Origin: a virus
Lineage: Duplodnaviria; Heunggongvirae; Uroviricota; Caudoviricetes
Virus record (IMG/VR): IMGVR_UViG_2923307698_000004
Length of the DNA: 57,073 bases
Reading direction: 5' to 3' (one strand)
Position 1 is the stretch's first letter. Each line of letters opens with the position of its first letter. Positions 49,001-55,000 of this stretch are shown here, one piece after another. Made by a program: the position numbers.

Positions 49001-52000
49001 GGAAAATTTGGGTGTCTTTGGTTATTTTCCATGCAGCTAAGAGTTCTGTTTTTGGGTCTGTTTTGTGCTGAAACATAACCATTTTCGGTACTGTTTTTAT
49101 TAACAGCACCAATTTTACCCACCTTTAAAGACTCCCGTTTTTGGGTGTATTCAGGCTCGGCAACACTTTCTTCTACACCGATAAGTCGGTACACCACAAT
49201 TTGCTTTGTTCTGCCTTTTCTCTCACCGGTATCAACAATTAACCCAATCTCCATCAGGTGTCGTAAGCTGTCCTGCACAGTCTTTTTGTTCAGTTCCGTT
49301 ACTTCTGCCAGTGCAGATACAGACGGGTATGCACACAAATCGGCACCGCACATATCAGCAAGCCAGGTCAATACTGACTTACTGGATGAACTGCCGGTTT
49401 TCACCTTTTTAGCCCATCGTAGTGCATCGATACTCATACGAACCCCTGGCAGACATTTGTTTATCTGCAAAGTAATATTGGTATTGCTGACGATACGCGT
49501 GCTTGAAAGCAATAGCTTTTTCTATAAGCTCGTCAGTCTCACGTTCCACAACAACTGGATCCGCAAAAAGCAGCCCGGACTCCACCACATCGCCATATTC
49601 TTTGTTTAACCCGGCGATCATGTACGTAATGCTTTTTCCGTCAGTAATTTCACAATACAATCTGAAATCGCTGATCCGGATAGCCTCCATAATTGCCGGA
49701 ATCAGCGCCGTGAATTTGTCACGCTTATCTCTGGTGTCGATAGCTTTCCAGCGTTCGAATATCTTCACCCGGTTAACGCCCAGCGCCCGTTGATCAACCT
49801 CGCCATCATTAAACGTGACGCGTTGAACATCGATGTTCGGGCGTTCTTTCAGAGCCCAGAATGCTTCCGTGATTAATATCGTCGCCTGCTCCTGTGTCAT
49901 TCCTGGTCGGCATACCCAGGTATCCAGAGCCTCACAAACCTGTTCAGTGGTGATTTTCATTGTTCAACCGCCCCGCCCGCTTTGCCTTACGATATTCGTC
50001 ATAAACTTTGGGGTCGTACTGAAGTTCCCCGCCGGATGCCTCTTGCAGGCGCATCGCGCGACCTTCAGGAACCAGTTCCCCCCATGCAGCAACGCTTGCC
50101 AGCCTAACTCCTGCGACATTGGCAAGCTTTGTTTTGCTGCCAAAAAACGCTATAGCATCAATTTTCAACATATCGAACCCCTTAGATTTTCCTAAGGAAA
50201 CTAGATCGTAGAGAAACCTAAGTCAAGAAAAATTAGAATTACCTAATATGAAAAACGAAACCTTCGGTGCTCGCCTCTTATGCAGGCGAAAAAAATTAAA
50301 ACTGTCTCAGGCCGCATTAGGTAAGCTGGTCAAAGTGGCTCACGTAACAATTTCTCAATGGGAAAGAGATGAAACACAGCCAGCGGGGAAGAGATTATTC
50401 GCACTGAGCCAGGCGCTTCAGTGCTCGCCGACTTGGCTTCTTTTTGGAGATGAAGATAAGCAACCAGGCGAACCGATCCCAGATAATCAGCCAGTCAATC
50501 TGACAGAAGATCAAAAAGAGTTGCTTCAACTGTTCGACGCACTGCCTGAGTCAGAGCAAAAGGCTCTGTTGTCAGAGATGCGTGCTCGAGTTGAGAATTT
50601 CAACAAACTTTTTGAAGAACTACTCAAAGCTCGCAAAAGAAGCGCAAATAAATAACCCCCCTTTTTTTCGCAACTCTCTGTAATAAAAAGCACAAACTTT
50701 CAAATACTTGTGTTTTTTACATCAAGAAGCTTAGGTTTTTCTACACAAAAAGCTTGACCATAACTCTTAGGCTATTCTAAATTCTACTCATCAAGACACC
50801 GCACGGTGTTCTCAGCAAACAGTTCCGCTACCCGGCGTTAAGGGGAAGCAGAGGATTTCTCAGTGGGCGAAGTCAAACATCAGAATGGAAGGCGTCCAGG
50901 GATCAGCAAAGAAACAGCGATGGCGCTTTATATTGATATCAGCGCCATTGCCGGACAGGTAAGAGTTATCAGAGCGGTAACTAAGCGGTATGCGCCTTTA
51001 CTTCAGAAAGTCTCTGGTGAGTGCACCGAAGATATTGTCAACGATTTCGTCATCGAACTGCGAGGACTCATCTTCAGTTACAAGGTGACCACAATTTTTG
51101 CAGATGGCTCCCGCGAAACTGTCAGAGCCCTGCGGCTTAAAGGATGTGTCAAAGACTTAGCCACCACATTCTGGGCAAGAAAACTTGATTGTATTCATAA
51201 CCAATTTCCTCTCGAGTAACAGACCCCTCAGAGGATACCACCTCGCCTGACGTGGTTAAAAAGCAGGCAACGCTAACCACAAGGAGCCGACATGCAGAAA
51301 CGAGACCCCGTCATCATCGCGCCAGACTATACCGATGATGAACTTTATGAGTGGATGCACCAGAAAATTAAGGCGGTGCAGGACCTGAAATGGGCCAATG
51401 AAGCCAGGGCTAAGCAGGCTGAAAATCTGTCCGCTCTGGAGCAGGATATCACCAATCTGGAAAAAGCAGCGGCATTAAGCATTGCCAGAATGATTACATA
51501 CCCACGTTAATAGCTAACCAACGAGGCTAATAATGGAATTTAAAGATTTACCAACGCCATTACAGGAAATGGCATCGAATATAGTTCGTTCACAACTGGC
51601 TACTCTTGACCTTAGTACCGCAGAAAAAGAAACCATCGATAATATGGTTCGTAATGTGCGCAATGCTTTTTCTGGGCTATATGGTTCTGATAATCAAAAG
51701 CAGGAAAGCGATGTTAATAAACGGGTAATTTCTGTTTGCGTGAATGGCCATGTTCTTTCATCAATCAAAACAGAAACGGCGACAGTCTTCGATTGCCTTT
51801 GCATTGTACAGAGCCTTGTTGATGCCCTGTTTCGTTCAGTGAATTTAGAAAATGATGCAAATCTGCGAGGGCGCATAATAGCACATCCATATGCACATAC
51901 TTTAGGCTCTGTGGATATCAAAGATCCCACAAATCTTTAATGAAATAGTTAACGCGAATTGTACTTGCTCTTTCGGTTTCTTTCAGAATACGCGTTGAAA

Positions 52001-55000
52001 CTGCTGGCGGTAATTTGGTATTCCATTTATTAAAATCATGCCCGGGAAAGTACTCTTCGAAAATACTTTTAACTGCAGACTCGCCTATTGAAATGCTGCT
52101 TACCATGCGATTTTGATAAAGGCATTTAGCAATAAGAGTTGATTTTAACATTCACCCTCCTGAGGGTTGGTAATTAAGGAGTTCTCCACGGGTGAAGTGG
52201 AGTGCGTGCGCCGGACACGGGTGAACATCCGGCACTGACAGTTTACTGAAAGGATATTTCTCTGAAAAGTCAGACCATAACGCGAAAGCGCACGGCGAGG
52301 TAGCTGGTTCATAGATAGCCTGTCGTTAAATTTTCGTCGACCGTGCGCTTCCGGTTGTGGCAATCCGCGAAATGGCGCGGCGGTAAGTATGGAGGGGTTA
52401 TTCCTTCCCCGTTGAGGACACCGGGTTGTCAGGTTGACCATACGCTTAAGTGACAACCCCGCTGCAACGCCCTCTGTTATCAATTTTCTGGTGACGTTTG
52501 GCGGTATCAGTTTTACTCCGTGACTGCTCTGCCGCCCTTTTTAAAGTGAATTTTGTGATGTGGTGAATGCGGCTGAGCGCACGCGGAACAGTTAAAACCA
52601 AAAACAGTGTTATGGGTGGATTCTCTGTATCCGGCGTTAATTGTTAACTGGTTAACGTCACCTGGAGGCACCAGGCACCGCATCACAAAATTCATTGTTG
52701 AGGACGCGATAATGGAAACGTTATTACCAAACGTTAATACGTCTGAAGGTTGTTTTGATATTGGTGTTCTGCTCAGTAACCGGGAGTTTACGGAAGATGC
52801 CATTAAGATGAGAAAATATGAACCTTATCTTCTCAATGATAATTCCATACTTTCCAGAATTGCCCTTCTTGAACTTGGTATTATCGGAGAACAGCAGTGA
52901 CTTCAGCATTTGCACTGGTGATGACCGTTTTTCTTATAACGGGTGAGCCACAAAATGTGATTACCGGAATTTATGACAGTAAGTCATCCTGCATTCAGGT
53001 AAGGGACGAACAAAAAATCCCCGGTGAATGCCTCCCGTTAAAAAAAGTATCGCTGAACCTGAATAACGAAATACCGGCTGGATAACCCGCCAGCCATATT
53101 AACGCCATACCAACGGATTAAAAATGCCAGCAATGGCAGGGATTCGTTCACCCTGAAATCTGTAATGAGGTTAAAACAAAATGAGTAAAGTCTTTATTTG
53201 CGCCGCCATTCCGGACGAACAGGCAATAAAGGAAGAAGGTGCCGTCGCTGTAGCCACTGCCATTGAAGCCGGTGATGAACGTCGCGCCCGCGCAAAATTT
53301 CACTGGCAATTCCTGGAACATTATCCGGCTGCTCAGGACTGCGCTTATAAATTTCTTGTCTGCGAGGATAAACCCGGTATACCCCGCCCTGCCCTCGATT
53401 CCTGGGATGCTGAATATATGCAGGAAAACCGCTGGGATGAGGAATCCGCTTCCTTTATTCCGGTCGAACCAGAATCCGATCCGATGAACGTCAATTTTGA
53501 CAAGCTGTCCCTTGAAGTACAGAACGCGGTCCTGGTTAAGTTCGGTACATGTGAAAACATCACCGTTGATATGGCGATTGACGCGCAGGAATTACTGCAG
53601 GAAGACGTTGCTACCTTTGACGGGCATATCGTTGAAGCACTGATGAAAACGCCTGAAATTAACGCTATGTATCCGGAACGCAAACTGTTCGCTATCGGAT
53701 GGGTTAAACACAAATGTAATCCGGGTGCCAAATGGCCCGAAATTCAGGCTGAATTACGTAACTGGAAAAAACGGCAGGACGCAGAGCGCAAAGAGACTGG
53801 AAAATACACGTCTGTTGTTGATCTCGCCAGCGCCAGAGTCAATCAACAGAACACTGAAAACTCAGCAGGAAAAATCAACCCAGTCACTGCCGCCATTTGT
53901 CGCGAATACAAGCAGACATGGAAAACGCTGGATGAAGAACTGGCCTACGCTCTCTGGCCTGGTGATGTGGATGCCGGAAACATTGACGGCAGCATCCATC
54001 GCTGGGCAAAAAATGAAGTTATCGACAACGACCGCGAAGACTGGAAGCGTATCTCGGCATCAATGCGCAAACAGCCTGATGCCCTTCGCTACGACCGCCA
54101 GACTATTTTTGGCCTTGTCCGTGAACGTCCGATCGACATTCACAAAGACCCTGTGGCACTGAACAAATACATTACTGAATACCTGACTACAAAGGGCGTG
54201 TTTGAAGATGAAGGAAGAAATCAGAGCGCAACTGATACTCTCTCGTCGCCAGTACCAGAAACTGATGCAGTGGAAACGGCAATTCCGGGCAACGAAAAAA
54301 CCGAATGCAAAGTGGAAGTCGAACCATCTGTAGAGCGTGAGGGGCCGTTCTACTTCCTCTTCACCGACAAGGATGGCGAAAAATACGGTCGCGCAAACAA
54401 ACTTTCTGGTCTGGAAAAAGCACTAGCCTTGGGAGCTACGGAAATCACAAAAGAGGAATACTTCGCACGTAAAAACGGCACGTACTCAGGTTCACAACAA
54501 AATACTGGTGCATCTGACACGACCGCACAACCAGAGCCGGTAAAAGTTACCGCTGACGAAGTAAACAAAATTATGCAGGCAGCCAATATCAGCCAGCCTG
54601 ACGCCGATAAGTTGCTTGCTGCCTCTCGCGGAGAATTTGTTGCAGGGATTAGCGACCCGAATGATCCGAAATGGGTAAAGGGGATTGAAACCCGCGATTC
54701 TGTAAACCAGAACCAGCAAGAATCGGAACAGAACGACCAGAAAGCGGAACAAAACAGCCCAAATACGCAACAAAACGAGCCAGAAACGAAACAACCTGAG
54801 CCAGTAGCGCAACAGGAACCGGAAAAAGTCTGCACCGCCTGCGGTCAGACCGGCGGCGGCAACTGCCCTGATTGTGGCGCGGTGATGGGCGACGCAACAT
54901 ACCAGGAAACATTCGATGAAGAGTATCAGGTTGAAGTTCAGGAAGATGATCCGGAGGAAATGGAAGGCGCTGAACATCCACACAAGGAGAACACTGACGG

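Follow-up and report, generated by a model that had tools for sequence, protein, structure and literature searches.

What could a small gene be doing on the strand opposite to a prophage early operon, where it points against the early transcript? This question is raised by a 57,073-nucleotide (nt) stretch of DNA from a Caudoviricetes virus (IMG/VR virus record IMGVR_UViG_2923307698_000004), which we call the window. An initial annotation, made from the sequence alone, had singled out a minus-strand open reading frame (ORF) at 51918-52151. We found that this ORF is a conserved gene and that it is inherited together with the gene on which it converges. The arrangement recalls prophage pairs in which one protein confers immunity and the other is its antidote, and we tentatively read it in that way. 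The elements at the centre of the analysis are:

51918-52151, minus strand: gene for a protein of 77 amino acids (aa), predicted to be small, soluble and all-helical (ORF scan; RefSeq coding sequence WP_000920491.1; phrog_10348)
52161-52156, minus strand: Shine-Dalgarno (SD) sequence AGGAGG of the 77-aa gene, four bases ahead of its ATG (sequence)
51533-51940, plus strand: convergent partner gene, 135 aa (RefSeq coding sequence WP_000394552.1; phrog_1363 and phrog_23433)
51918-51940, both strands: overlap of the two coding tails, 23 nt

A conserved gene for a small protein

The gene has 77 codons, with an ATG at 52151-52149 and a TGA stop at 51920-51918 on the minus strand, and the coordinates, the length of 77 codons and the AGGAGG-type SD sequence given in the initial annotation were all confirmed. 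A 77-codon open frame alone is not beyond chance, since the scan returned many spurious ORFs of like size; it is conservation that settles that the gene is real. The initial annotation had made its case depend on conservation at the protein level, and we found this to be extensive. The protein matches a phage family of unknown function, phrog_10348, with residues 1-77 aligned to profile positions 1-77 of 77 (E 7.9e-47). A protein search returned 33 cluster representatives with 53-72% identity, most of them exactly 77 aa long, and same-length homologues occur in at least eight other genera; the genera named are Klebsiella, Raoultella, Dickeya, Xenorhabdus, Salmonella, Morganella, Yersinia and Serratia. 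The N-terminus MLKSTLIAKCL is invariant in the 33 homologues, and W-N and FIKDLW are conserved. When we searched 1.84 billion representatives exhaustively with a profile, 163 clusters (defined at 50% identity) passed E ≤ 0.001, of which 67 also passed E ≤ 1e-10; the majority consist of proteins that stand alone and are 74-78 aa long, and residues M1, C10 and W43 are invariant among 60 divergent members. The codon-substitution analysis that had been proposed as a check indicates purifying selection: among 36 distinct sequences across genera, nonsynonymous divergence (pN) is 0.26 per site as compared to a saturated synonymous divergence (pS) of 0.72, and the ratio of the two rates (dN/dS), calculated from unsaturated pairs only, is about 0.18 outside the overlap. 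Taken together, these data make it virtually certain that the ORF is a genuine protein-coding gene.

The gene is already annotated, only as hypothetical, and it has no name, domain or structural relative. WP_000920491.1 carries the description 'hypothetical protein', and literature searches on the ydfC/dicF antisense region and on the family returned no description of the ORF or its family. A near-identical stretch (99.9% identity) is found in complete Escherichia coli genomes; the whole stretch is present in about 648 of 5,426 of them, and the carriers, among those listed, belong mostly to Shiga-toxin-producing lineages. Prophages of many other Enterobacterales have the gene as well. A tblastn search of 50,697 phage records with the 77-aa protein gave 12 close relatives only, in PPompW-type prophages and phage Evi. 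One family member with 43% identity lies in a Psychrosphaera chromosome (locus L011, 3989-4228) without the partner; its neighbours, a PAS/methyl-accepting chemotaxis gene on one side and a large gene of glycoside-hydrolase-like type on the other, are encoded on the opposite strand, and there are no obvious prophage genes within 2 kb.

Structure prediction, which the initial annotation had also proposed, gave a confident AlphaFold2 model of five helices from a 30-sequence alignment (predicted local distance difference test, pLDDT, 96.5; predicted template modelling score, pTM, 0.86), and this model has no relative among solved structures. Foldseek against the Protein Data Bank (PDB) returned nothing at E ≤ 0.001, profile searches against PDB sequences returned nothing, and the sole match in BFVD is an uncharacterised member of the protein's own family. 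When the 60 divergent members were compared with profile libraries, there were scattered hits above E 0.005 and no family was hit by more than two members. The protein has no visible hydrophobic membrane-spanning stretch and no helix-turn-helix (HTH) match, and it is mildly basic; based on the model, it is predicted to be a small cytoplasmic five-helix protein. We rejected a lipoprotein or signal-peptide reading of MLKSTLIAKC, which has no hydrophobic core and has a K before the C.

The convergent partner and an exchangeable cassette

The initial annotation stated that the ORF converges on the early operon and overlaps the 3' end of an upstream gene, and that is what we see: 23 nt are shared with the gene for the 135-aa protein. 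To describe the pairing, two parts of this protein have to be told apart:

residues ~1-55, plus strand: N-terminal module, common to other E. coli prophage proteins
residues ~58-135, 51704-51940, plus strand: C-terminal core, the conserved partner of the 77-aa gene

The 77-aa gene and a convergent gene of 77-85 aa overlap by exactly 23 nt in Dickeya, in Xenorhabdus and in each of four different Serratia prophages. The partners in other genera are stand-alone proteins of 76-85 aa, homologous to the C-terminal 75 residues of the 135-aa protein, and the partners have the motif VxVNG...T..A...DY...LExEANxxGKTxxH in common. We scanned 92 loci and found that the partner is present at every intact enterobacterial locus examined, about 64 of E. 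coli type and about 25 from other genera (56-68% identity for the 77-aa protein, Proteus included). The overlap is 23 nt at all of these bar one (L078), where a 78-aa variant overlaps by 26 nt. The loci outside the intact set are two that are apparently frameshifted (L092 and L012, the latter from Photorhabdus) and one that is not intact at a contig end (L076). At a locus on a metagenome contig (L097), where the 77-aa homologue has only 37% identity, there is again a homologous convergent partner and a 23-nt overlap. The antisense gene and the adjacent sense gene are thus inherited as a pair at the intact enterobacterial loci and at L097. In ten further loci outside E. coli, cro and cI always come first, next the partner and the antisense 77-aa gene, and then the remaining early-left genes (YfdP, DUF2303, RdgC, CsrA and the like). 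The 77-aa gene and its partner very probably form a functionally linked convergent pair.

Both overlapping proteins end in I-K-D-x-x-x-L-stop, and each stop codon complements the other protein's Ile-Lys codons. An overlap of 23 nt is also found in an unrelated pair of 63-aa and 201-aa proteins (L103, 3584-3606), and a pair of 92-aa and 133-aa proteins overlaps by 41 nt (L094, 3362-3402). The three overlap lengths are all 2 modulo 3, which is the same relative frame, with the third codon positions of one strand facing the second positions of the other. A bidirectional terminator or hairpin at the 23-nt overlap was considered and rejected: there is no stable RNA hairpin there (z –0.14 and –0.36) and no terminator-like site.

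The partner evolves faster, with 27-41% identity between genera as compared to 56-68% for the 77-aa protein. Its AlphaFold2 model is unreliable (pLDDT 43.6) and is unusable because the alignment was shallow, the word-index search having fallen short of distant partners. Searches of Pfam, NCBIfam and PADLOC returned nothing for it.

To identify how the pair came to lie where it does, we compared the window with the Qin prophage of E. coli K-12. The elements concerned are:

51292-51510, plus strand: ydfC (RefSeq)
51531-52164, both strands: 634-base-pair (bp) cassette with the partner gene, the 77-aa gene and its SD sequence, absent from K-12 Qin
52152-52262, minus strand: antisense leader ('platform') of the 77-aa gene, conserved, 96% identity in K-12 Qin
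52486-52537, plus strand: DicF small RNA (Rfam RF00039, 76.7 bits, E 2.8e-16)
52712-52900, plus strand: dicB (Pfam DicB, E 3.7e-38)

Window positions 51292-51530 correspond to K-12 ydfC and positions 52165-52823 correspond, with 96% identity, to the K-12 stretch from upstream of dicF to dicB; in K-12 there is nothing between the two matches. The junction of the cassette reads GCTAA followed by GGTT(A/G)GTAATTAAGG. The GC content of the cassette is 0.39-0.40, as compared to about 0.5 in the flanks. The cassette therefore has two traits of a moron, presence or absence relative to a close relative (the 634-bp indel against K-12 Qin) and deviant GC content; it has no promoter or terminator of its own inside the insert, and only 13 nt upstream of the 77-aa gene, carrying the SD sequence, belong to the insert.

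The site is polymorphic among E. coli prophages. The N-terminal module (MEFKDLP...GLY, about 55 residues, window 51533-51700) recurs in prophage proteins of 124-212 aa whose C-termini are unrelated, and the genes for variants of 133, 201 and 208 aa lie at the same site, upstream of dicB. The gene for the 133-aa protein is followed by an antisense 92-aa gene (L094, 3001-3402; phrog_18692), and the gene for the 208-aa protein is followed by an antisense 69-aa gene (L095, 3001-3627; phrog_4274). The 201-aa protein (L103, 3001-3606) keeps the partner core and adds 70 residues, and its antisense gene, of 63 aa, overlaps it by 23 nt. The leader sequence ...CTCCTTAATTACCAACCCTCAGGAGGGTGAA-ATG is identical before the 77-aa gene and before the unrelated 63-aa and 92-aa genes, and the 69-aa gene has a related leader, so that, of the three alternative cassettes examined, two have exactly this leader and SD sequence. 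Because the 63-aa and 92-aa genes start at the leader of the 77-aa gene, the point of exchange is the very start codon. Such swapping of antisense genes is typical of prophage accessory or defence hotspots. The combination of a constant module, unrelated C-terminal domains and a different convergent small ORF (92, 69 or 63 aa) resembles the exchange of toxin/immunity cassettes.

K-12 Qin (L008, 2563-2882) keeps the leader as far as ...TTAATTAC(T/C)AAC, without the SD sequence or the gene, and is 96% identical there to window 52152-52485. A long untranslated region upstream of dicF has been described in K-12 (PMC5069750). Since the homologous leader is present there without its cargo, this region would largely be the leader of a lost antisense gene, and to judge from the alignment it looks like the scar of an empty cassette site.

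Two other insertions, the second one putative, were seen in E. coli prophages. In one E. coli prophage (L104, 1694-2172), a PaaA2/ParE toxin-antitoxin pair lies between the repressor gene and a ydfA-like gene and is another accessory insertion in the early-left leader region. In the prophage with the 208-aa variant (L095, 1-1265), the cro/YdaT side of the immunity region is directly bordered by Mu-type transposase and repressor-like genes, suggesting that a Mu-like element has inserted into the prophage.

Transcription of the locus and what the pair may do

The 77-aa gene lies among the immunity and early-left genes of a lambdoid prophage. On the side of the immunity genes we find:

49944-50171, minus strand: P22-Cro-like gene
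50248-50655, plus strand: dicA-like HTH repressor gene
50731-50783, plus strand: early-left (PL/dicB-type) promoter-like site with operator-like sequence (promoter scan and 12-mer recurrence)

On the plus strand 3' of dicB, there is a DUF1482 gene and then a gene for an 823-aa exonuclease, which is followed by xis and int in a near-identical RefSeq record (H1, E. coli E2865). The dicA-like gene, ydfC, DicF and dicB are all on the plus strand around the ORF, as expected from the initial description of it as antisense to the dicA-dicF-dicB unit, and by the ORF scan and RefSeq it is the sole minus-strand gene between dicA and int. The ORFs at 50863-51940 had been called unassigned, which holds in part; the one at 51292-51510 is ydfC. 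The first ORF past the early promoter (50863-51219, plus strand) is 118 aa long from a GTG, and RefSeq gives 99 aa; because of this shorter RefSeq protein and because phrog_21318 covers residues 20-118 only, its true start is probably an ATG near 50920. A 112-aa minus-strand ORF at 52145-52483, which overlaps the start of the 77-aa gene, was taken as spurious; the stretch is common to K-12, and no gene is annotated in it in the K-12 record or the H1 RefSeq record. From DicF to the start of dicB (52535-52744, plus strand), there is an Rfam match to STnc100 that spans the whole model; at 38.7 bits (E 5.5e-06) it stays below the gathering score of 47.

The early-left promoter-like site consists of TTGACC-18-TAAATT at 50754-50783, with CTTAGGTTTTTCTAC directly upstream. 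This sequence matches GTAGAGAAACCTAAG of the cro-dicA intergenic region over 15 nt with one mismatch. To locate operators more generally, we took 12-mers from the cI-cro intergenic region and searched for them, allowing one mismatch, in 10 loci. In 7 of the 10, the window included, they reappear in the interval from cI to the partner; upstream of the 77-aa gene they occur at most once, and such occurrences are AT-rich and chance-like. This pattern places the partner in the repressor-controlled early operon and the 77-aa gene outside those operators. In K-12, the dicBF operon promoter, from which dicF and dicB are expressed, lies upstream of ydfA (PMC5069750). In the window, the promoter and terminator scan found no plus-strand promoter or terminator between 51940 and 52486, and the early transcript would read through the antisense cassette to DicF. 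Two minus-strand sites were also recorded. The only terminator-like site found in 50600-52750 lies inside ydfC (51487-51470), and a minus-strand transcript ending there would be antisense to the entire 135-aa gene. A promoter-like sequence (TTAACA-16-GAGAAT, 9/12) lies between dicB and DicF (52647-52620), and transcription from there would proceed antisense to DicF and on into the 77-aa gene.

For the 77-aa gene itself, we looked in the leader. In other genera, about 45 nt upstream of the gene are strikingly conserved although the synonymous sites of the adjoining gene are saturated. This block, TTTTCA-N17/18-TGgTATCTT, resembles an extended –10 promoter with a CCAC-N-GTGG palindrome in its spacer, and it is promoter-like, a candidate on the strength of its sequence. 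In the window, the place of the –10 element reads AGAACT. The leader of the window has inverted repeats at 52235-52206 (GTGCCGGA...TCCGGCGCAC) and at 52202-52184 (CTCCAC-N7-GTGGAG), and positions 52152-52262 fold into two hairpins (z –1.6); single-sequence folds of the leader are inconsistent (z +0.6 to –1.6). A hairpin that would occlude the SD sequence, for which there appeared by eye to be compensatory changes, was dropped after RNAalifold found no consensus pairs.

The distant locus with the inverted cassette (L097) bears on when the two genes are expressed. There, a cI-like repressor gene, a 110-aa gene and the 77-aa homologue succeed one another on one strand, 60 and 18 nt apart; the antisense position is taken by the partner, which diverges from the early genes across a 130-nt intergenic region. 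The layout of the window and that of L097 point to the same division of roles: the family member belongs with lysogeny and the partner with repressor-controlled lytic transcripts. The initial annotation had grouped the ORF with early genes for host takeover or anti-defence, and our data do not bear this out. Given its orientation, the gene cannot be expressed by the early promoter; together with the operators, which lie upstream of the partner only, and with the repressor operon of L097, this favours a product made while the early operon is silent over an early lytic function.

Based on these observations, we favour the following reading. The 77-aa gene and its convergent partner would make up a self-contained cassette of two genes, inserted in the early-left (PL/dicB) operon, in which the partner gene would be read with the repressor-controlled early transcript and the 77-aa gene would be read in the opposite direction from its own leader. 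The 77-aa protein would then be made during lysogeny, while PL is silent, and the partner would be made after induction, when firing of PL would suppress the antisense unit through polymerase collision and duplex RNA. The 77-aa protein would be a lysogeny-phase effector, and our best guess, from position and precedent, is that it is a candidate superinfection-immunity factor; the partner would be its cognate neutraliser, sparing the prophage's own lytic growth. Here, we infer the timing of expression, the physical interaction of the two proteins and the immunity function. By analogy with characterised prophage pairs, the whole chain, a 'noncontiguous operon' of immunity and antidote genes, is a serious possibility that we hold short of probable. 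A wider version is rather unlikely: that the family and its partner are a previously unrecognised immunity/self-antidote system of two orphan folds on a swappable 'antisense cargo platform' between ydfC and dicF. The platform would then be common to many E. coli prophages, with K-12 Qin as an empty scar, and each 63-, 69- or 92-aa antisense gene with its matching sense C-terminal domain would be a different effector/antidote pair.

Several findings count against the favoured reading. Pfam, NCBIfam and PADLOC contain no family that matches the 77-aa protein at E ≤ 0.1, and it resembles none of the defence, anti-defence, toxin or antitoxin families known to these collections; with no solved structure to compare it to either, its function has to be read from context. 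A length of 77 aa is small for an immune effector. The promoter scan found no sigma-70 consensus match upstream of the gene in the window. The partner core is also found in the 201-aa proteins with a different antisense gene, so that the pairing is not strictly reciprocal. Finally, more distant members have no partner and lie beside terminase/HNH, portal or HU genes or at a non-prophage chromosomal site, which indicates that the basic activity of the family is not tied to the control of lysogeny.

We weighed this reading against four others. That the two genes are a toxin-antitoxin-like or addiction pair appears doubtful to us. One of the small proteins would be harmful; this could be the PL-expressed partner, acting to shut off the host. 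The 77-aa protein, made continuously, would then neutralise its leaky expression in the lysogen, with the overlap adding type I-like RNA repression. Two small, tightly linked and co-inherited genes fit this, as do the constant N-terminal module with variable C-terminal domains in E. coli and the exchange of the sense C-terminal part together with the antisense gene in L103, which recalls toxin/immunity cassettes; the low-confidence model of the partner (a beta-hairpin, a helix and a conserved unstructured tail) has an antitoxin-like layout, and a ParE/PaaA2 module lies nearby in the related prophage L104. However, no toxin or antitoxin model in Pfam, NCBIfam or PADLOC matches either protein, and the genes are convergent, not a co-directional autoregulated operon as in a type II module. 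The 77-aa protein is also the more conserved of the two, which would be unusual for an antitoxin, and many family members stand alone. An ordinary lysogenic-conversion moron that acts on the host independently of the partner, with the overlap reflecting shared descent only, is unlikely. The clean indel with its lower GC content, the gene's own SD sequence and opposite orientation, and the use of the same platform by other cargo genes are what one would expect of such a gene; yet the pairing and the 23-nt overlap are still seen at 37% identity and survive inversion of the cassette, a survival that is unexpected of unrelated neighbours, and the promoter region lies outside the inserted DNA, unlike in classical morons.

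The location in the early region might instead mean that the 77-aa protein is a lytic-phase accessory protein for host takeover or anti-defence with an early promoter of its own, its orientation and partner being incidental. Distant relatives do lie in lytic modules, beside terminase small subunit/HNH and portal genes, and small size and an orphan fold are typical of anti-defence proteins. We consider this quite unlikely. The early transcript must cross the 77-aa gene to reach dicF, dicB, exo, xis and int, and because the gene is antisense to that transcript, PL activity should oppose it; repressor operators were not found upstream of it, the homologue in L097 follows the repressor gene on the same strand, and no HTH (aca-like) neighbour was seen. 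Least likely, and indeed highly improbable, is that the functional product is an antisense RNA that regulates the partner, ydfC or the dicF precursor and that the reading frame is incidental. K-12 does retain the leader without the cassette, and the terminator-like hairpin in ydfC would allow a transcript antisense to the whole partner gene, but the selection on the protein makes a function in RNA only unlikely: the amino acids are under strong purifying selection against a background of saturated synonymous sites, the 163 clusters hold to a length of 74-78 aa, and the fold is predicted with very high confidence.

Comparison with known systems

If the favoured reading is true, the pair would bring new proteins to a short list of documented prophage systems whose immunity function is wired to its own antidote by antisense transcription, and the site beside DicF and DicB would be a swappable hotspot to be mined for such pairs. 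We also reread the long K-12 stretch before dicF as the leader of a lost antisense gene, which bears on the processing of the dicBF transcript. If there is no immunity role, the protein is still a well-conserved orphan fold with a clear genetic handle.

Morons and exclusion genes of the lambdoid PL region (sieB/esc/sas in P22 and lambda) resemble the cassette as accessory inserts between conserved genes near the immunity region, and the absence from K-12 Qin, the lower GC content and the opposite orientation are further moron-like traits. SieB is larger than the 77-aa protein and is membrane-bound. In contrast, the 77-aa protein is predicted to be small, soluble and helical, and it has no similarity to SieB; unlike at sieB/esc/sas, the promoter region lies outside the insert, and the overlapping genes are two protein genes, not a gene and a small antisense RNA. 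Type I and type II toxin-antitoxin modules, for example RalR/RalA of the Rac prophage, are similar in having two small co-inherited genes, an antisense overlap and a prophage location. They differ in that both members of our pair are conserved proteins, encoded convergently and without homology to toxin-antitoxin families. In the dicBF operon of K-12 Qin (ydfABC-dicF-dicB-ydfD; PMC5069750), ydfC, DicF, dicB and ydfD are present and syntenic with the window; unlike the window, it is an 'empty site' that has the leader without the antisense gene.

The closest precedents are prophage pairs described with the concept of the 'noncontiguous operon' (Saenz-Lahoya et al., 2019), in the sense in which PMC11087260 and PMC11364771 use it. 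Its hallmark, an opposite-strand gene nested among co-directional genes, is found in the window and in Dickeya, Serratia, Xenorhabdus, Proteus and other genera. In phage 80-alpha of Staphylococcus aureus, ith is a small overlapping antisense gene with its own promoter, whose product inhibits the HEPN RNase Tha (Nat Microbiol 2024, PMC11087260), and through antisense transcription each of the two expression states excludes the other (PMC11087260). The layout of L097, with the family member in the repressor operon and the partner antisense to it, is like that of Tha and Ith. In the window the roles would be swapped: the sense operon of 80-alpha is the lysogenic cI operon and the antisense gene encodes the inhibitor, whereas the sense operon of the window is lytic. 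Unlike in Tha, neither a HEPN nor any other domain is detectable in the 77-aa protein.

In phi80, the lysogen expresses tai, a gene that runs antisense within the Q-dependent late operon (Nat Commun 2024, PMC11364771). Tai and Ati, an immunity by inhibition of tail assembly and its counter-defence, are inherited together (PMC11364771); ati is the adjacent sense gene and is expressed in the lytic cycle only, and Ati binds Tai and prevents autoimmunity (PMC11364771). The 77-aa cassette is similar in that a small antisense gene lies beside a sense partner inside a lytic operon. We found no relationship of the 77-aa protein in sequence or fold to Tai, Tha, Ati or Ith. Unlike tai, which lies in a late operon and whose product TaiEcA is 26.1 kDa when tagged with 3xFLAG (PMC11364771), the 77-aa gene lies in the early-left PL operon and encodes a protein of 77 aa. 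A further difference is that the coding tails of the cassette overlap by a fixed 23 nt. The architecture is therefore of a known kind, that of noncontiguous-operon prophage pairs, and it differs from these in its new protein families, its location in the early-left operon, the fixed length of its tail overlap and the exchangeable platform on which it sits.

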